DNA from: a virus
Taxonomy: Duplodnaviria > Caudoviricetes
Reading direction: 5' to 3' (one strand)
DNA: 57,680 nucleotides
Virus record (IMG/VR): IMGVR_UViG_3300044859_001932
Coordinates: 1 to 57,680 of that record
The notes beneath the pieces are model-generated. The model was not told the origin of the DNA and did no database searches. It worked only from the letters and a program-made list of their open reading frames with translations. This document shows positions 997 through 12,391 of the stretch, one piece after another; positions within the stretch are counted from its first letter, which is position 1, and each line of letters starts with the position of its first letter. Position numbers and translations under genes: made by a program.

Positions 997-1051
997 AATT
1001 GGGTTTTATTATTCTACCGCAATTTTAAATAAATCTTTCGAAATAAAAAAA

Positions 1052-1852
1052 TTAAATTGGAAGTTTTACCTTACTTAAAAGACTATTTGAGACGTGTGTG
1101 TAAATTTCTGTTGTTTTAGAGCTAGAATGCCCTGCTATTTTTTGGATAATTCTTAAATCAGTTCCTGATTCTAATAGGTTAGTGAAAGAGGAATGCCTTA
1201 GTGTATGTATTGATGACCCGTCATCAATGTATTTTTTATAAATTTGCTGACAGCTTCGTATTGAATACCATGAAGAATTTTGCCCATTAAAAAGATAATC
1301 TGAAGGTTTATACTCTTTAAAATATTCTCTTAGCAAAGTTAAAACAGTTAATGACAGCGGAACTATCCTATCCTTTCGACCCTTTGCATTTTTAATGTGA
1401 ATTATCATTCGTTTGGAATCAATGTCCTCGATTTTTAAGTTTACGATTTCAGACACCCTTAGGCCAACCGAGTAGGTTAGGGTTAGTATAGCTCTGTGCT
1501 TAATGTTTTGTATTTTAGCAAGTTTGCTCTTAATAAACTCACCATCAATAACTCTGGGTAACTTCTTTTCCGATTTTGGTCTTTTAAACGAAACCTTGTC
1601 GTATTTCTTATCTAAACCAAACTTATATAAAAACCTTATAGCGTTAATCACTTGGTTCTGTTGAGAAACCGAAGTGAATTTATAGTTATCCAAATAAAAT
1701 TGGAAATCTTTGGAACTACAATGGATTATCTGTTTGTCATTAAGAGTATTAAGAAAATCCCTAATATGACACATATAATTGTCTTTTGTTCTTGGTGAGT
1801 AGTTTAAATATATAAACTTTTCTTCACAAATCTTTATAATTTTTTGGTTCAA
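1052..1852 (-). CDS. integron-integrase-like tyrosine recombinase (TTG start)
   Basis: N-terminal YSPRTKDNY and SQQNQVINAIRFLY, KKLPRV; catalytic set GLR(VSE), KGRKDR, HTLRH, AGH, TTEIY(THV). No IntI-specific insertion between YLF and HTLRH. Confidence 0.92.
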   Translation of the reverse strand: MNQKIIKICEEKFIYLNYSPRTKDNYMCHIRDFLNTLNDKQIIHCSSKDFQFYLDNYKFTSVSQQNQVINAIRFLYKFGLDKKYDKVSFKRPKSEKKLPRVIDGEFIKSKLAKIQNIKHRAILTLTYSVGLRVSEIVNLKIEDIDSKRMIIHIKNAKGRKDRIVPLSLTVLTLLREYFKEYKPSDYLFNGQNSSWYSIRSCQQIYKKYIDDGSSIHTLRHSSFTNLLESGTDLRIIQKIAGHSSSKTTEIYTHVSNSLLSKVKLPI

Positions 1853-1859
1853 AGTATTA

Positions 1860-1905
1860 ATTTTAAAGTGTTTAATCTATACTTGTTTATATATAATAGT
1901 TATGC
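1860..1905 (+). other. putative attI-like site (crossover G|TT at 1899/1900)
   Basis: GTTATGC at 1899-1905, 47 nt upstream of the integrase start, complementary to GCATAAC of the first attC-like site, with no hairpin before it. The left boundary is approximate. Confidence 0.6.
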
Positions 1906-2088
1906 TCAATTAATTTTTATTTTCCATTTCTTATGGTCTTTAATCAATTTATGACATTTGTGGCACACTTTAAAAAGCATCGTTAACTCGAATAAATAAA
2001 AATTAACTGTTACTTTTCTGAAAGTGTAATTGTCGTGGGAGCAATCATCCGTTGTTGTGAATGTGTATGTATTTGATTCTGTAAGCAT
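1906..2088 (-). CDS. cassette 1 ORF, small Cys/His-containing hypothetical protein
   Basis: ATG lies inside core site GCATAAC (2085-2091) and TGA abuts GTTATGC (1899-1905), so the ORF exactly fills the cassette. Confidence 0.65.
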   Translation of the reverse strand: MLTESNTYTFTTTDDCSHDNYTFRKVTVNFYLFELTMLFKVCHKCHKLIKDHKKWKIKIN

Positions 2089-2180
2089 AACAATATGTAT
2101 ATGTAATGTGGCTAATTAAATTTATCTGTAAATTGAAAGTATGTGCAAAGCCACACTACACATACATTCAAACGTTAGGC
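2085..2180 (+). repeat. attC-like site 1 (96 bp)
   Basis: GCATAAC-aat-ATGTATATGTAATGTGGCT...AGCCACACTACACATACAT-tcaaac-GTTAGGC. Confidence 0.85.
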
Positions 2181-2181
2181 G

Positions 2182-2586
2182 TTATGCCAAGACCGACTTT
2201 GCGACAATCCAAAATCCACCATAATAACCATTGTGTTCATTGTGGTTTGCCATTTGAAAAACGCCATTACTTGTTTTGACATCTAAAAATTGTACTTCGT
2301 GGTCGCCATATTCATCTTCCATATTTGGAGCATTTTTTAGCTCAAAATCTAAAAGTGTAGTATTTGCATATTCGGTCAAGTCGTCTGCTGTTACCATATA
2401 TCTACTTTCGCAACAACTTTGACCATCATCAAACATTTTCAATCCAGAACCATCTGTAAATTTGAATACCAACTCATTGTTTTCTAAACTTACTTTTTCA
2501 ATTACTTTTCCAAGTGCTGATTTCACAGCTTCAACAGTTTCTTTATTACCACCAAGAGACTGTATCATTACGCCTAATCCTAACAT
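2182..2586 (-). CDS. cassette 2 ORF, phage-type hypothetical protein
   Basis: 134 aa with QSCCE and NGYYGG motifs that I recognise from phage hypothetical proteins; stop abuts the core site. Confidence 0.8.
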   Translation of the reverse strand: MLGLGVMIQSLGGNKETVEAVKSALGKVIEKVSLENNELVFKFTDGSGLKMFDDGQSCCESRYMVTADDLTEYANTTLLDFELKNAPNMEDEYGDHEVQFLDVKTSNGVFQMANHNEHNGYYGGFWIVAKSVLA

Positions 2587-2642
2587 ATTTTTTAATTTTA
2601 ATTGTTTACAAATTTTGACTTCCTACCGAGAAAGGCACAAAC

Positions 2643-2774
2643 GCCTAACATCGGTTTTGTGCAAGTGGGGCTGAACGATTAAATTCAACGGCAGTAATTC
2701 TATTTGGCTTTTGTGCTAACTTGAAACTTTTGTGTTCCAAATCCCCACCTGCACAAAGCCGTGAACCGTTATAA
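2643..2774 (+). repeat. attC-like site 2 (132 bp)
   Basis: GCCTAAC-at-CGGTTTTGTGCAAGTGGGG...CCCCACCTGCACAAAGCCG-tgaacc-GTTATAA. Confidence 0.85.
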
Positions 2775-2933
2775 CCCATTTTTGAGTTTAACCTTATTGT
2801 AGAGCCATAATTTTACTCCATTGGTAGGCTTATTTTTCCAATGTTCTTCAAGCAAATCAATGCTTTCTTTTGATACTTTATTCCACCTATGGAGTAAAAT
2901 ATATTTAACGTATGTTTTTAAAAAATCTATCAT
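2769..2933 (-). CDS. cassette 3 ORF, 54-aa hypothetical protein (not in ORF track)
   Basis: Manual translation MIDFLKTYVKYILLHRWNKVSKESIDLLEEHWKNKPTNGVKLWLYNKVKLKNGL*; the TAA stop is part of the core site. Confidence 0.7.
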   Translation of the reverse strand: MIDFLKTYVKYILLHRWNKVSKESIDLLEEHWKNKPTNGVKLWLYNKVKLKNGL

Positions 2934-2944
2934 AATAAAACGGG

Positions 2945-3077
2945 TTATAACAAAGTATATAAGTAAGTGGCTTTTAACTAGTTTACCCCTATCGGCATTT
3001 ACTTTCTCATAGTCCGTAGTACTCCGTCTATAAGCAATAAGAAGTAAGCCACCTACTCATATACTCAACCGTTATGC
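2945..3077 (+). repeat. attC-like site 3 (133 bp)
   Basis: TTATAAC-aa-AGTATATAAGTAAGTGGCTT...AAGCCACCTACTCATATACT-caacc-GTTATGC. Confidence 0.85.
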
Positions 3078-3146
3078 TCCATGCCTTAGTTCAGTGTTTC
3101 AAATTGAATTTTGTGATGAAAAACAAAAAGAATTTTCTCAACGCAT

Positions 3147-3707
3147 TTATAATCTTCTAATCCTTTTTATTACTGATGCATCCCAAATACAACCAGAATT
3201 TACATCAATAGTATTCATCCAGTAATATTCTTCTGATTTTTCATATAAATTTCTAACACCAAGTTCTTCATAATTTGGAAACTCAATACCTTTATATTCT
3301 TTTGAAACTAAATCCCAATTAATATTGTGTGGATAATTTTGACGTGTACTATATTTTTTTGTAAACTCTTTAAATAAATCTTCTGTATTCAGAATGATAA
3401 TTTCACTCAAATCAAAATATAATTTATAAACATAAACCTCACTATTCATCACACCCTTTAACGGTACGTTTTCCCCAGTGTCCCAAGTAACACCATGTTT
3501 TTTAAAATTAATCCAATTATCACCAAATCCATACCATAAACCAGAAGGTTTTCCATGAACATCTTGATTTTTAACTCTGATTTCAATTTTATCAATTGGC
3601 GTTTTACTTAGATGAATTCTTTCTTTGCTTCCTAATTCCAATCTTTCATTCACAAACTGTTTAAAGTTCTTAATTCTATCTATTTGTTCTCGCATTTCTT
3701 TTGACAT
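3147..3707 (-). CDS. cassette 4 ORF, hypothetical phage protein with capsid-targeting-like N-terminus
   Basis: 186 aa; begins MSKEMREQIDRIKNFKQFVNE; KPSGLWY and SGCIWD motifs. Confidence 0.85.
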   Translation of the reverse strand: MSKEMREQIDRIKNFKQFVNERLELGSKERIHLSKTPIDKIEIRVKNQDVHGKPSGLWYGFGDNWINFKKHGVTWDTGENVPLKGVMNSEVYVYKLYFDLSEIIILNTEDLFKEFTKKYSTRQNYPHNINWDLVSKEYKGIEFPNYEELGVRNLYEKSEEYYWMNTIDVNSGCIWDASVIKRIRRL

Positions 3708-3812
3708 AATATTTTCTTTATATATAAATATTAAGATTTAAAAAATCCACCCTAAAATTCTTTTTTTTTCGTGTTTCAAATCAACATTAGTACTTAATAA
3801 GTCGGCACGAGA

Positions 3813-3906
3813 GCATAACAAGGTGTATAAGAAAGTTTGCTATCAGCAGTTGTGGTAATTTGAAAGTTTATCCAAGCAAACCTTCTCATACACCCAATCG
3901 TTATAT
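3813..3906 (+). repeat. attC-like site 4 (94 bp)
   Basis: GCATAAC-aa-GGTGTATAAGAAAGTTTGCT...AGCAAACCTTCTCATACACC-caatc-GTTATAT. Confidence 0.85.
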
Positions 3907-3917
3907 GAAATGTTATT

Positions 3918-4226
3918 TTAGATTTTGAGTTTAATCATTTTACAAATCATATCAAATTCATCCATAGTATTACATTCACCATTAAACTTAACAGAGTGAT
4001 TTGGACCATCTTGGTTAAATCCATTATCTGTTGTTGTAAGTTTTACTATGTATGTATTGAATGAATGATTTTTACCATCCATTGTATATTCAGTTTTTTT
4101 AGTTTTTATATATAGAAAAGCACCTTGTCCATCATCTTTCCATACATCACCTTTTTCAAATTTCATTTCGTTGTCAAACTCAAAACTGAATTTCCAACCC
4201 TTTTGTTCAAAATCTTCTTTTTTCAT
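3918..4226 (-). CDS. cassette 5 ORF, hypothetical protein
   Basis: 102-aa ORF between core sites 3900-3906 and 4267-4273. Confidence 0.8.
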   Translation of the reverse strand: MKKEDFEQKGWKFSFEFDNEMKFEKGDVWKDDGQGAFLYIKTKKTEYTMDGKNHSFNTYIVKLTTTDNGFNQDGPNHSVKFNGECNTMDEFDMICKMIKLKI

Positions 4227-4266
4227 ATATTCTTCTTTTATTTGTAAAATCTAAAATAACACATTC

Positions 4267-4320
4267 ATATAACAAATGATAAACAACATTAAAACGATTG
4301 TTTATCATCGGACGTTATAA
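4267..4320 (+). repeat. attC-like site 5 (54 bp, minimal)
   Basis: ATATAAC-aa-ATGATAAACAA-cattaaaacga-TTGTTTATCAT-cggac-GTTATAA; perfect 11-bp stem. Confidence 0.8.
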
Positions 4321-4393
4321 GTAATAAATTAGTTCTTCTTTTGTTATTTGTATCTTTTTCATAATGTATAAATTTTAAAGTAACTAAATATAA

Positions 4394-4427
4394 CACAATA
4401 ATAAATAAATCTTTCGGGGTAAAAAAA
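4394..4427 (-). promoter_or_regulatory. putative early promoter facing the cassette array
   Basis: Minus strand TTTTTTTACCCCG...TATTATTG, a one-mismatch variant of the recurring T-run/CCG + TAnnTTTG motif. Confidence 0.5.
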
Positions 4428-4431
4428 TAAA

Positions 4432-5880
4432 TTAGAATCTTTTTAGAACATAAAGCTTTCTACTGGCTCTAGTATAGGAGGTATAAAGTATTCTATTTTT
4501 TTCAATTATATTAAAATTTTGATTTATGTCATCCTCCAGAACAAATGTTGTATTGTATGTGCTTCCTTGCGATTTGTGGGCGGATATTGCGTAAGCGAAA
4601 TTCACATCAGCATACTTTCTAAGGAAGTTGTAGTACACCAACCAGCTTTTATCCTTTCCTTTTTTTTCTATAGCTCTAAGCTTTAGAATATTAGCTAGTT
4701 TTTTAAAATCTTCTTCACTGTCCTCGTGTAAGATTTGTATATTAACCCTTACTGTTTCATCCTCGTCATCAAGATAGCTAACAACAGTTTCATAATACTT
4801 TAGAGTTATCGAAAATGGTTCGGCATCGGGTTGATCTGATATGTGATATCTAAGATCATCGCTACCGATAGTAAAACTATCCACACTGAATTCGTCGTTG
4901 GTGTTCAGAACTATTGACTCACCTTGAATGATCGGATTGTTTGCGATTAGTTTTTCCCCAACCAATATCTTTGATCCTAATGCTTCGTCTCCGTAGATAA
5001 CTTTACGAATAACATCATTCATGGTTGCAACAGTTTTATTTCTCCATGCAATGATCTTTGCATACTCAGAATCTTTTTTAAATTCATCGGTGACAAAATA
5101 GCGTCTTAGTATTTCTGAGAATCCTTTTCTTGTCTCAGGAATATTGAGATTAAGAAATTCTATTCCTTCACCTTTCTCATTTAACTTTGTAACGGGTTCA
5201 ACTGGATTTTTAGCTCTACCTAATTCAGATCTAATAGCCACAGATGATTCGATAATAGCATTATCTTTCTTCTGACGCATGATCTGTTTGAGATTAAGTG
5301 TTTTAATTCTATAACCTGCAGCCAGCTCTTCTCTAAAAGGAATACAATCGGGTTTACCTACTGGAGGAATCTGTGCTGGATCTCCCATGCAGATAATTTT
5401 TATTCTGTCTCTGTATTTTAGTACTTCTTGAAACAGATCATCATTCAGCATCGAAACCTCGTCGATAATAAGTAGCTTTACCGTCTTTATCTTTGGTTGG
5501 AAATCCCCCTGATTAACAAATTCCTGTACACCTTCTTTGGTTATCCTTTCGGTTAGGCCAAGCATTTTATGAATGGTTTGAAACGAAACCCTAGGATTTT
5601 TCAGCCCGCTGGTTTTTTTAATAACCCTCACTGATTTATTGGTTGGTCCTGTAACTGCTATTCTATACCAATTATGAGCTGGGTGTATTACCTCGAGCAC
5701 ATATCTAACAAGCACACTCACACAATAGGTCTTTCCTGTTCCTGCCCAACCCTTCAGAACATAAACACTATCATCTCCCTTATCACAGATGAAATCTCTT
5801 AAATCTTCAAAAGCTGTCTTCTGATCTGAGTTAAGAGATTCTAAATCTATTATTGGTTTTCCTTTTTTAACTTTAGCCAT
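4432..5880 (-). CDS. dda: Dda/RecD-like SF1B DNA helicase
   Basis: Walker A GWAGTGKT, TIHKMLG, IIDEVSM, GDPAQIPPV, AHKSQGSTY, YTRAS. Confidence 0.9.
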   Translation of the reverse strand: MAKVKKGKPIIDLESLNSDQKTAFEDLRDFICDKGDDSVYVLKGWAGTGKTYCVSVLVRYVLEVIHPAHNWYRIAVTGPTNKSVRVIKKTSGLKNPRVSFQTIHKMLGLTERITKEGVQEFVNQGDFQPKIKTVKLLIIDEVSMLNDDLFQEVLKYRDRIKIICMGDPAQIPPVGKPDCIPFREELAAGYRIKTLNLKQIMRQKKDNAIIESSVAIRSELGRAKNPVEPVTKLNEKGEGIEFLNLNIPETRKGFSEILRRYFVTDEFKKDSEYAKIIAWRNKTVATMNDVIRKVIYGDEALGSKILVGEKLIANNPIIQGESIVLNTNDEFSVDSFTIGSDDLRYHISDQPDAEPFSITLKYYETVVSYLDDEDETVRVNIQILHEDSEEDFKKLANILKLRAIEKKGKDKSWLVYYNFLRKYADVNFAYAISAHKSQGSTYNTTFVLEDDINQNFNIIEKNRILYTSYTRASRKLYVLKRF

Positions 5881-5885
5881 CTATT

Positions 5886-6131
5886 TTACTCTCCCTTTTT
5901 TAATCGATATAGATTTATAGCGATCACTAATATGTTCATTATTATTATAGGGTATGCCGACAAAAAAATTCCATATACAACAAACATTGAGCATGCTATG
6001 CTGTTTATGATTCTTAGTTTACTGAAATCCTTCATGGTCATTGAGTAAAGAACAACCAGCATTGATAGGTATCCGAATATTTCTATTTTAGTCATGGCAG
6101 TATAAAAGCGTTGGGTTATCCCGGTGAACAT
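5886..6131 (-). CDS. small multi-pass membrane protein (true start probably about 6095)
   Basis: Three hydrophobic segments, KLRIINSIAC motif. Confidence 0.65.
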   Translation of the reverse strand: MFTGITQRFYTAMTKIEIFGYLSMLVVLYSMTMKDFSKLRIINSIACSMFVVYGIFLSAYPIIIMNILVIAINLYRLKKGE

Positions 6132-10710: not shown

Positions 10711-10977
10711 ATGAAAGTTTTCACCAAAATAGAAGAGTTTTTGGCAACTAAGCCCCAAACAGCTCCTAGTCAGCCAACTACAAAGCCTGGAACTGCTCCA
10801 GGAACAAGGCCTACCCCTTCAAGACCGAGCCCAATCAGAAGGGATAAACCATCTGTTGAGCCAGCTCCTAAAGCTAAAGCAAGTAACGTTGTTGATAGAT
10901 TTATGAAGGAACTTAAGAAGGCCAATGCACCTATAAAATTTGACATCTCAAAATTAAAGACTAAATATGAATCTTAA
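10711..10977 (+). CDS. Pro/Thr-rich hypothetical protein
   Basis: 88 aa, coupled to the next ORF. Confidence 0.75.
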   Translation: MKVFTKIEEFLATKPQTAPSQPTTKPGTAPGTRPTPSRPSPIRRDKPSVEPAPKAKASNVVDRFMKELKKANAPIKFDISKLKTKYES

Positions 10978-12391
10978 ACCATTTACACAGCTAGTAGACG
11001 AAGCCTCTTTAAAAGATAATCCAGGAATACCTGGGGAAGGCGGAAAAGAAGGGGATTACCTTTCAAAAGTTGAAGGCAGAGCAAAAGAAAGACTTAATGC
11101 TCTTCAAAGAAGACACGGCGCTGATATTCCTAGATTCATGTCATTTGTTTCTAGAGTAAGACAAATTCAAGCAGGAAAAGAAAAGGAACTAGAAAAGCTT
11201 GCAGAAGATGCAATTAGAGCTTATTACGGGTCTATTCTAGAGGAAGTCACGTTAAACATTAAGTTTCCTAAGGATGATCAGATTAAGAAATCTATGGAAA
11301 ATGTTCCATCAGAACCCCCTGAAATGCCACAGCTTAAGGAACTTAAGGATGCTAACATCATTTCAGAAATTCAAAAAAGAAAGATAGCAAACAATATCAC
11401 TCAAGGTGAAGCTAAGAACACCAAGCTTTGTTTAAATTTACCTGAGGTTAGAGACGGTTTAACTAGAATTCTAGGACAAGAGCAAGGTACAGAGTATAGA
11501 GACCTACTTAATAAGATCACAGAAATTGCTGGATTCTTCGATTGGCAAATACCAATGGAAGTTCAGTTGGAGATGTGGACAAGAGATAAATCTGGATTCA
11601 GCGGATCAGTAACAGTTGAATGGAACACAGATAAAGACGAAGATTCAGAAGATCTTGCACAAAAGATCTTAGGTGAATTAGAAGACGACACAGAGGTACC
11701 GGAAGAAACTGAAGAACTATTCGATCAGACCCAACCTACTATTAATGCTTTAGGTACTGATTTTGCTATGTTACTTCATGAAACTGTTAAAGGAATCTAT
11801 GAACTTATAGCTGCAGTTGGTATTCCTGATGATGAGGAAACAGCAGAAACAGTCATCATGAACACTGATTCATTAGCAGATGAGATTGAAGATCTTAGAT
11901 ACGGGCCAGAAATTGCCGCAGATCTCAGAGACTTTATTAGTGCTTTCCCTGAATATGATAGCATTCCTAACTTAAGAGAACACGTTTTTGGCAAGATGAT
12001 GGCAATGGACGCTAAAGATTTCCTTGATCTTATGTATATGATACTTAATGATGATTCTAAAGCTAAACCAGTTGTACAAGAATTCATCGACGAGGTTGCA
12101 GAAGAGATTGGTAAATATGAACTAGGTCAAGCAGGAATTGATAGTGACGATGATTATGAGCCAAGTGAAGAAACACCAGGTAGAGCACCAGCAGAACCTG
12201 CACAAACAGCACCAGAAGAAATAGATTATTCGGAACTTTCTAAAAGAGAAATAGAAAAACTAATTGATAAAGCTTTAGATGCTAAAGATTTTGACACAGT
12301 TAGAGATCTTGCTAAATATTTAAAGGAATCAAAGCAACAAGATGTATTCGAAAGACTTCATAGAGAGTCTGGTTATCCATCCAATCCATAA
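10967..12391 (+). CDS. acidic hypothetical protein
   Basis: 474 aa; N-terminus MNLKPFTQLVDEA. Confidence 0.8.
   Translation: MNLKPFTQLVDEASLKDNPGIPGEGGKEGDYLSKVEGRAKERLNALQRRHGADIPRFMSFVSRVRQIQAGKEKELEKLAEDAIRAYYGSILEEVTLNIKFPKDDQIKKSMENVPSEPPEMPQLKELKDANIISEIQKRKIANNITQGEAKNTKLCLNLPEVRDGLTRILGQEQGTEYRDLLNKITEIAGFFDWQIPMEVQLEMWTRDKSGFSGSVTVEWNTDKDEDSEDLAQKILGELEDDTEVPEETEELFDQTQPTINALGTDFAMLLHETVKGIYELIAAVGIPDDEETAETVIMNTDSLADEIEDLRYGPEIAADLRDFISAFPEYDSIPNLREHVFGKMMAMDAKDFLDLMYMILNDDSKAKPVVQEFIDEVAEEIGKYELGQAGIDSDDDYEPSEETPGRAPAEPAQTAPEEIDYSELSKREIEKLIDKALDAKDFDTVRDLAKYLKESKQQDVFERLHRESGYPSNP

Follow-up and report, generated by a model that had tools for sequence, protein, structure and literature searches.

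Candidate attC-type hairpin sites in an integron-like cassette array of a large lake-water phage

The IMG/VR virus record IMGVR_UViG_3300044859_001932, analysed here over its full 57,680 bases (the window), raises the question of whether imperfect palindromes lying beside a tyrosine recombinase gene can act as recombination sites of gene cassettes when both the insertion typical of integron integrases and the extrahelical bases of classical attC sites are absent. Given its CheckV completeness of 21, the window is a fragment of a large phage, and near-identical DNA was found in 24 lake-water metagenome runs. From left to right it holds a minus-strand recombinase gene (1052-1852), five imperfect palindromes with small minus-strand open reading frames (ORFs) between them, and a helicase gene (4432-5880). 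We consider it probable (roughly 0.7) that the five palindromes are attC-type sites of an integron-like cassette platform in a large lake-water phage, the bottom strand being the one that would fold.

The five hairpin sites and their cassettes

A palindrome scan of the whole window for TAAC and GTTA placed around a stem returned exactly five sites of identical polarity. A covariance model, whose training alignment included these five sites, was searched with its filters off and returned the same five only, all on the minus strand, with E values of 8e-17 to 2e-7 and nothing further in the window up to E = 1. Both searches thus found the five sites named in a preliminary description of this DNA and no others. 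The sites are as follows.

2088-2177, minus strand: site 1; arms 2095-2113/2149-2167, 19-bp stem, loop of 35 nt, mismatches A2101.C2161 and A2106.C2156
2646-2771, minus strand: site 2; arms 2652-2672/2741-2761, 21-bp stem, loop of 68 nt, mismatches A2664.C2749, T2655.G2758 (of opposite sense) and one C.T at the stem tip
2948-3074, minus strand: site 3; arms 2954-2973/3046-3065, 20-bp stem, loop of 72 nt, mismatches A2961.C3058 and A2966.C3053
3816-3903, minus strand: site 4; arms 3822-3841/3875-3894, 20-bp stem, loop of 33 nt, mismatches A3829.C3887 and A3834.C3882
4270-4317, minus strand: site 5; arms 4276-4286/4298-4308, 11-bp stem, loop of 11 nt, short 48-nt class

A left-hand TAACA and a right-hand CGTTA were common to all sites (5/5), as had been described, and a bulged base within the stem was found in 0/5. 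The spacers, previously given as 2-3 and 5-6 nt, were recounted as 1-2 nt on the TAACA side and 3-5 nt on the CGTTA side, the right one still being longer by about 3 nt. In the minus-strand fold this asymmetry forms a one-sided bulge of 3 nt that separates the TAAC/GTTA helix from the stem on the 5' side; the earlier statement that the sites have no bulged bases therefore holds for the stem, but the spacer asymmetry is itself an unpaired polar feature. The stem mismatches of the five sites comprised seven A.C on the top strand, one T.G and one C.T, in agreement with the earlier count of seven A/C mismatches in eight. When both strands were folded with DNA parameters, the minus/plus energies of sites 1 to 5 were -16.3/-15.0, -22.0/-21.0, -17.5/-9.6, -17.1/-12.4 and -9.7/-8.4 kcal/mol. 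The minus strand, as anticipated, folds better in 5/5 sites, with a large gain at sites 3 and 4 and with z-scores of -2.4 to -5.5 (site 4, -5.5).

The recombinase gene, the junction beside it and the five cassettes, which span 1900-4314 and whose genes lie on the minus strand and are all directed at the recombinase, are arranged as follows.

1052-1852, minus strand: tyrosine recombinase of the Xer/IntI group, 266 amino acids (Pfam Phage_integrase, 3.3e-34)
1884-1902, strand unassigned: attI-like junction with the motif TATATATAATAG|TTA; putative crossover G1899|T1900
1900-2174, minus strand: cassette 1; doubtful 60-amino-acid ORF 1906-2088 and site 1; start TTATGCT
2175-2768, minus strand: cassette 2; ORF 2182-2586 (Pfam DUF7448, 3e-18) and site 2
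2769-3071, minus strand: cassette 3; 54-amino-acid ORF 2769-2933 and site 3; complementary 10-nt ends GTTATAACCC/GGGTTATAAC
3072-3900, minus strand: cassette 4; 186-amino-acid ORF 3147-3707 and site 4; complementary ends GTTATGCTC/GAGCATAAC
3901-4314, minus strand: cassette 5; 102-amino-acid ORF 3918-4226 and site 5; a mobile unit
4432-5880, minus strand: helicase gene, right of the array

Each cassette begins with TTA and closes with its own hairpin site ending in CG, and the sequence to the right of a site is reverse-complementary to that on the left of the following one (GTTAGGC/GCCTAAC, in addition to the two pairs listed above). For site 1, the partner of the left flank GCATAA is GTTATGCT at 1899-1906, inside TATATATAATAG|TTATGCT, and complementary ends are present in cassettes 1-5. 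Such ends are the signature of circular cassettes inserted by crossover within GTT, and the array is built, as an integron is, of discrete mobile cassettes with one attC-type site each and reverse-complementary ends. Two of the five cassette ORFs match only families of unknown function (that of cassette 4 by a weak PHROG match alone) and three are without a match, including the 60-amino-acid ORF of cassette 1, for which no family was found. In cassette 3, the 54-amino-acid ORF uses as its stop codon (2769-2771) the TAA of the TAA|C core that lies, on the bottom strand, at the boundary of the cassette.

The attI-like junction is situated about 45 nt upstream of the recombinase start codon. The motif TATATATAATAG|TTA, or a close variant, was located 40-80 nt 5' of the recombinase start in most of the related loci inspected, a frequency judged by eye rather than counted, and the sequences of related loci part ways immediately past its G|TTA. 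Homology between the window and eight relatives covers the recombinase gene and ends at 1902-1904 in five, at 1910 in one and earlier in two. Because the motif is conserved and homology ends at 1902-1904, the segment 1884-1902 is read as a putative attI beside the recombinase gene, with insertion at G|TT and a likely crossover at G1899|T1900. In four related loci (L013, L020, L023 and L049), the first unit after attI is nearly empty and consists of G|TTA, 5 nt, the 11-nt motif CATTAAAACGA, 5 nt and TAAC; the same motif forms the loop of site 5 (4287-4297) and is found in 21 of 253 site loops.

Pairing and the strand mark in related viral loci

In IMG/VR viral contigs, 201 relatives of the recombinase were identified, and 80 loci, with 58-98% identity, were fetched. 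Sites were carried on the 5' side of the recombinase gene in 60/62 loci with at least 1 kb of sequence there. The array side held 331 sites in 318 kb against 7 in 429 kb on the other side, which excludes chance, and 329/331 sites share the polarity of the window. The 253 unique sites came from a scan for gap-free stems, in which stems with an internal bulge could be missed or shortened. They fall into three length classes (near 48, 86-90 and 124-129 nt), with AAC/GTT cores 48-229 bp apart, spacers of mostly 1-2 nt after the left TAAC and mostly 5 nt before the right GTTA, and loops of 6-187 nt (median 63). The sequence TTGAAA(G/C)T, previously noted in three loops of the window, was confirmed in loops 1, 2 and 4; TTGAAA occurred in 27/253 related loops against 6.5 expected by mononucleotide shuffling (maximum 14), and the motif marks a subfamily rather than a general feature of the sites. 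ORFs were directed at the recombinase in 189/253 segments and away from it in 1, so the cassette genes of the phage arrays do not read away from attI as those of integrons do. Few of the sampled cassette ORFs of the relatives match Pfam, and 5/150 encode DNA methyltransferases. A covariance-model search, of the kind that the preliminary description had recommended, gave 82 hits over 16 non-training sources, 78 of them on the expected strand.

Seventy-five diverse sites, drawn from a scan that required TAAC and GTTA, were aligned in the bottom-strand sense. Their consensus consists of a 5-pair TAACG/TGTTA helix, the spacer and a 14-pair stem, with AAC and GTT invariant. Compensatory change on both sides was observed at 12/19 consensus pairs, and 97.4% of cells were paired, compared to 69.9% in shuffles (0/500 reached the observed value) and 32-49% with slid partners. 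On this comparative measure the hairpin is shown to be under selection for pairing, in keeping with the earlier remark that the stems differ in sequence and retain their pairing.

The mismatches within the stems were far from symmetrical. Across the 253 unique sites, 355 were A.C on the top strand, 26 were G.T and 69 were of other kinds. With the T of TAAC as position 1, an A.C was found at position 19 in 194/202 sites, including window sites 1-4 (the short stem of site 5 ends before this position), and at position 14 in 76/252. Next to the AAC/GTT core, A5 is 100% conserved opposite a C at -5 in 96%, and at the cassette ends, in the extended R-box flank, the A at +6 (98%) lies opposite a C at -6 (75%). 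These three near-fixed top-strand A.C positions (core-adjacent, R-box flank and position 19) each correspond to a G.T wobble on the bottom strand, and the wobbles thus recur at similar positions, as had been proposed from the five sites. Up to position 25, Watson-Crick pairs make up 85-100% of each remaining stem column, most of these columns showing 3-4 pair types, and several arm positions are kept in sequence (T11 99%, A12 82%, A19 98%). Because it is kept at 96% while its neighbours covary, the position-19 mismatch is, on the evidence of these alignments, a selected feature and not decay. The bottom strand was the more stable one in 234/253 sites, with a median difference of 2.5 kcal/mol under DNA parameters.

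Cassette movement and bacterial arrays

Cassette 5 and its right-hand site were found in identical form in a related locus (L065) whose recombinase is 66% identical and in which the left-hand site is unrelated. The identity between the window and this locus starts at G|TTATATG and ends at GGACG|TTA, with divergence straight after. Homologous segments between sites were compared in 104 pairs from 87 arrays: both neighbouring sites were kept in 93, the right one only in 8 (about three independent events), the left one only in 0, and neither in 3 (about two events); a stricter threshold left these counts unchanged. These comparisons show that cassettes enter, leave and change place in the arrays, with their breakpoints at G|TTA, and that a cassette travels with the site on its right.

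Cultured Flavobacterium phages provide a further view of this variation. In Muminvirus and Lillamyvirus, the early leftward operon is such an array and bears several DNA methyltransferase genes. The Muminvirus arrays have a conserved left junction, ATATTGTAG|TTA, that resembles the attI of the window, and filifjonk9-1 carries an additional cassette inserted exactly there. The phages mumin9-1 and mumin6-3 differ by a one-unit insertion or deletion with AACGTTA on both sides, and in snork9-1 one cassette is situated at a different place in the array. At 4562-4706 of mumin9-1 (L005), the gp008 cassette ends in a half site that has an intact right arm with CGTTA but neither a left arm nor TAAC.

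Individual sites of the window also recur elsewhere. Site 2 has a counterpart of 73.7% identity in 18 records of Flavobacterium phages (Muminvirus, Lillamyvirus), site 4 is 87-96% identical to sites at other positions in four related loci (L012, L013, L019 and L027), and site 5 has copies of 98-100% identity in L017 (five of them), L014, L024 and L027. All 24 lake runs were available as assembled contigs. In four lake metagenomes the summed contig depth at site 5 (4240-4406) was 200-900, compared to about 3-10 for the backbone, and it was also elevated at site 4 (3739-3905) and in the attI region (1735-1901); the short sites are common to many genomes of the lake community. Contig joints at 1849>4261 and 1902>4266 and a back-joint at 3904 were considered as signs of excision and were not counted, given their short sides (22-38 letters) or low depth and 90% likeness. 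Contigs that skip from 2670 to 2743 match variants of site 2 with a different loop.

The strand that folds better in the phage arrays coincides with the sense strand: the ORF lies on it in 189/253 segments and on the other strand in 1. Phage data alone therefore cannot separate a fold of the DNA from a fold of the mRNA. Bacterial genomes contain relatives of the recombinase at 41-51% identity, and in nine bacterial loci the gene is followed on its downstream side by an array of this site family, together with a similar attI motif. These include loci of Flavobacterium cheonanense (L126), Arundinibacter, Algoriphagus, a Chitinophaga metagenome-assembled genome (MAG), Nitrospirae and Atribacteria MAGs, and Desulfitobacterium (L158). 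In the bacterial arrays an ORF on the top strand is followed by the site in 13/18 segments, with 0 on the bottom strand, and position 19 is a top-strand A.C in 14/14 sites. The bottom-strand covariance model gave 25 hits in these loci, all of them (25/25) opposite to the ORF strand. Because the bacterial ORFs switch strand while the wobble stays on the bottom strand, the wobble is, judging from these arrays, a mark on the DNA site that follows the polarity of the site relative to attI and not the transcript. The strand bias first described for the window therefore belongs to the DNA site. In the Desulfitobacterium sp. chromosome, a complete Firmicutes genome, the segment 6001-12164 holds an insertion-less recombinase followed by at least five sites with sense-strand ORFs; complete integrons are reported, in the accounts drawn on here, as absent from Firmicutes.

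The recombinase, a possible mechanism and its rivals

Pfam assigns to the recombinase Phage_integrase and an N-terminal SAM-like domain. Its NCBIfam scores (cut-offs in brackets) were 178 bits for XerA_Arch (220), 146 for the integron integrase family TIGR02249 (265), 142 for XerD (330) and 141 for XerC (335), so that curated scores place it in none of XerA, XerC and XerD, and its TIGR02249 match is split into two stretches. When aligned to VchIntIA (2a3v), residues 17-178 and 209-262 correspond to 17-181 and 260-313, with about 48 residues absent; the alignment breaks at the location of the IntI insertion, and the IntI-specific additional domain with its I2 helix is lacking. The preliminary description of an insertion-less integrase is borne out by both the split, sub-threshold match and this gap. 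In an AlphaFold model (mean predicted local distance difference test score 83), Foldseek placed XerA (5hxy, 4a8e) and VchIntIA (2a3v) level at the top, with E values of about 1e-13, and the alignment to 2a3v took 313-317 columns for the 266-residue query. R132, K157, H216, R219, H242 and Y251 are invariant in 36 relatives, and the predicted catalytic residues are accordingly conserved. Thousands of metagenomic relatives exist and are named XerD where the source names them. The sites lying next to the gene are the putative substrates of this enzyme.

The following course of events would account for the array. As in classical integrons, the bottom (window minus) strand would fold while it is single-stranded, such as during replication. 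The recombinase would then bind the TAAC/GTTA helix and cut 5'-TAA|C-3' on the 5' arm, a single strand would be exchanged, and replication would resolve the junction. Since extrahelical bases and the IntI insertion are both absent, the choice of strand would not depend on contacts between them and could instead be built into the DNA: the wobbles would keep the bottom-strand hairpin continuous, the A.C mismatches would weaken the top-strand hairpin (by a median of 2.5 kcal/mol), and wobble and 3-nt bulge may also be read directly by the protein. By analogy with classical attC sites, the folded bottom strand would be the substrate, which fits the observation that cassettes keep their right-hand site; the wobble bias, the fold energies and the breakpoints on the R' side are indirect signs of it. 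The wobbles and the spacer asymmetry would take the place of extrahelical bases. Of the structure-specific, attC-like interpretation proposed at the outset, the cassette recombination sites (attI junction, complementary ends, cassette 5 in two arrays), the selected fold, the strand bias that follows site polarity and the lack of the IntI insertion are supported; the single-stranded substrate, the action of the neighbouring recombinase on the sites and the substitution for extrahelical bases stay conjectural.

Three other explanations were weighed. Recombination of the Xer type on duplex or cruciform DNA, in which differences between the arms are sequence marks that tell the left from the right end and pairing matters only for extrusion or because both arms bind a shared protein, appears unlikely, but it would agree with XerA as the top family match, with the absent IntI insertion, with the conserved arm positions (T11 99%, A12 82%, A19 98%) and with occasional breakpoints on the TAAC side. 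Such a reading does not need stem columns that vary among 3-4 pair types yet stay complementary, nor does it sit well with AAC/GTT cores 48-229 bp apart in the duplex without an Xer-type core site, or with near-fixed asymmetries that are all transitions of one sense and preserve pairing on one strand alone. Stem-loop-flanked modules in T4-type phages have been proposed to be shuffled by homologous or microhomology recombination between co-infecting phages, and the palindromes could likewise be passive intergenic repeats that move modules without a dedicated enzyme. We regard this as very improbable, although site sequences are common to phages at 87-100% identity and arrays occur in phages without a recombinase gene, since the arrays lie beside one recombinase family, on one side and in one polarity in 60/62 loci, attI is the insertion point although it shares only GTTA with the sites, and unrelated neighbouring stems do not shift the breaks away from G|TTA.

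The hairpins might alternatively act in the cassette mRNA through stabilisation, processing or attenuation, with the G.U pairs arising from selection on the RNA fold. The better-folding strand is indeed the sense strand in the phages (189/253 vs 1), and G.U is a good RNA pair, but in the bacterial arrays the ORFs lie on the other strand and the wobble strand is unchanged (14/14 sites, 25/25 hits antisense). This explanation also leaves the attI junction, the complementary ends and the G|TTA breakpoints unaccounted for, and we give it hardly any credence; RNA as the sole explanation is contradicted by the bacterial arrays, and a second role of the hairpins in phage mRNA is possible. A terminator reading was rejected, with one terminator-like hit in 1000-6000 against a shuffle mean of 1.5 and no T-run; the sole hit is an alternative small hairpin inside site 1.

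Several observations weigh against attC-type sites recombined as a folded bottom strand. Archaeal XerA, the best-scoring family for the recombinase, acts on double-stranded DNA, and the insertion that the recombinase lacks is reported, in the sources cited here in part, as essential for integron function; Smyshlyaev et al. (2021), as far as the portion drawn on here goes, describe the insertion as not fully conserved within their integron-like subgroup. The strand bias proposed at the outset is real and fixed in position across the 253 sites but is not absolute: 16/253 sites fold better on the top strand, and a T.G occurs at site position 10 in 14/253 sites, in site 2 and in most Muminvirus sites. 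A G.T is still a mismatch in DNA, and the computed advantage is modest. In three segment pairs (about two events) the sites on either side have both been replaced. A relocated cassette precedes one stem in mumin6-3 and another in snork9-1, and TAAC-side breakpoints therefore also occur. No recombinase is annotated in the Muminvirus phage mumin9-1. Finally, sites within a length class are kin by descent, so site counts do not equal independent events.

Relation to known systems

When compared to classical integrons (VchIntIA and the Vibrio cholerae repeats, VCR; 2a3v), the arrays share a recombinase gene and attI followed by cassettes that each end in an imperfect hairpin site, as well as the AAC/GTT core, the G|TT crossover, complementary cassette ends, a variable loop, an unpaired spacer and one favoured strand. 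Accordingly, three features of attC sites are recognisable here: a predicted hairpin formed by an imperfect inverted repeat with AAC/GTT in its R boxes, an unpaired central spacer, which is strongly asymmetric, and a variable terminal structure, with loops of 6-187 nt. The fourth, extrahelical bases on one arm near the L box, is absent, no bulged base having been found in the five stems; Nivina (2016), in the part drawn on here, describes such bases and the recombination of classical attC sites as folded bottom strands. In contrast to classical integrons, the phage recombinase has no IntI insertion, fixed G.T wobbles and a one-sided 3-nt bulge give the site its polarity, the cassette genes are inverted and directed at attI with the site upstream of the gene, and of the RYYYAAC consensus only (A/C)TAAC is conserved.

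Qi et al. (2023; PMC9892861) reported the nearest published case, clusters of attC sites lacking integrases (CALINs) in virulent phages, one of which is Polaribacter phage P12002L, a carrier of methyltransferase cassettes. According to the sections of that paper drawn on here, phages of Flavobacteriia have attC-like sites that separate small genes and DNA methyltransferase genes, as in the arrays described above, and IntI1 recombined one P12002L site as bottom strand only. The word 'extrahelical' has 0 occurrences in its main text, which was not searched for wobble marks or for an attI of the arrays. In P12002L we found two TAACA...CCGTTA sites beside methyltransferase genes, which resemble the present family and may or may not be the published attC1 and attC2, and no covariance-model hit at E <= 0.01. 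A published description of this recombinase-attI-array system or of its wobble marks was not found in our literature searches, Qi et al. (2023) being the closest. Recombinases near attC sites that lack the IntI C-terminal signature were judged by Cury et al. (2016), in the part of that study drawn on here, not to be IntI.

The Xer/dif systems (XerA, XerC/D) are the closest kin of the enzyme in sequence and fold, the phage protein being a two-domain simple tyrosine recombinase of 266 amino acids. Xer recombinases act at one short dif site, whereas the phage enzyme scores under every Xer cut-off and its sites form arrays of 48-229-nt hairpins. The bacterial insertion-less arrays (L126, L158 and others) share with the phage arrays the site family, the position-19 wobble, a similar attI motif and recombinases 41-51% identical, and differ from them in that the array is downstream of the recombinase and the genes lie on the top strand in the order gene then site, as in classical cassettes. 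The odds appear evenly balanced that all of these belong to a separate, widespread integron lineage, present in Bacteroidota, other bacteria and chiefly large phages, which recombines hairpins without the IntI insertion or extrahelical bases and has its strand written as G.T wobbles and a bulge.

Integron recombination is a textbook case of a recombinase that reads DNA shape over sequence, and in the current account the extrahelical attC bases are matched to the inserted IntI helix that holds them (PMC7790495, cited in part). The same cassette logic is seen here with neither innovation, in hundreds of viral contigs and in bacteria whose phyla are described, in the reports drawn on here, as having few or no complete integrons. 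If the lineage is real, folded-strand recombination would not be tied to the I2 helix, and would be older than it or have arisen twice. The phage version would run in the reverse order, each site preceding its gene and new cassettes joining the far end of an early operon, and the array would be a store of small accessory genes, some of them DNA methyltransferases that plausibly counter host restriction. The fixed wobble offers a simple, testable hypothesis for strand choice by an Xer-like enzyme and bears on the origin of integrons from duplex recombinases. The arrays are gene-turnover hot spots among otherwise near-identical phages, composed mostly of unknown small genes and DNA methyltransferases, and such compact structure-specific sites with their small enzyme could serve as tools.

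Further variation was observed in other large and cultured phages. The 462-kb uncultured phage LR756500.1 (L002) bears an array at 1642-6098 with 16 model hits on one strand, three hits of opposite orientation at 10715-11488, 4.6 kb further along, and degenerate sites that end in CCATTA in place of CGTTA. Near the recombinase homologues of the cultured phages Freya (36% identity) and Ingeline (38%), the scan and the model found no such sites. Immediately upstream of that gene, the Freya isolates vary in their content of small genes, by as much as about 4 kb, and the corresponding region of Freya_10 (L003, 1-4962) may contain a different type of site.

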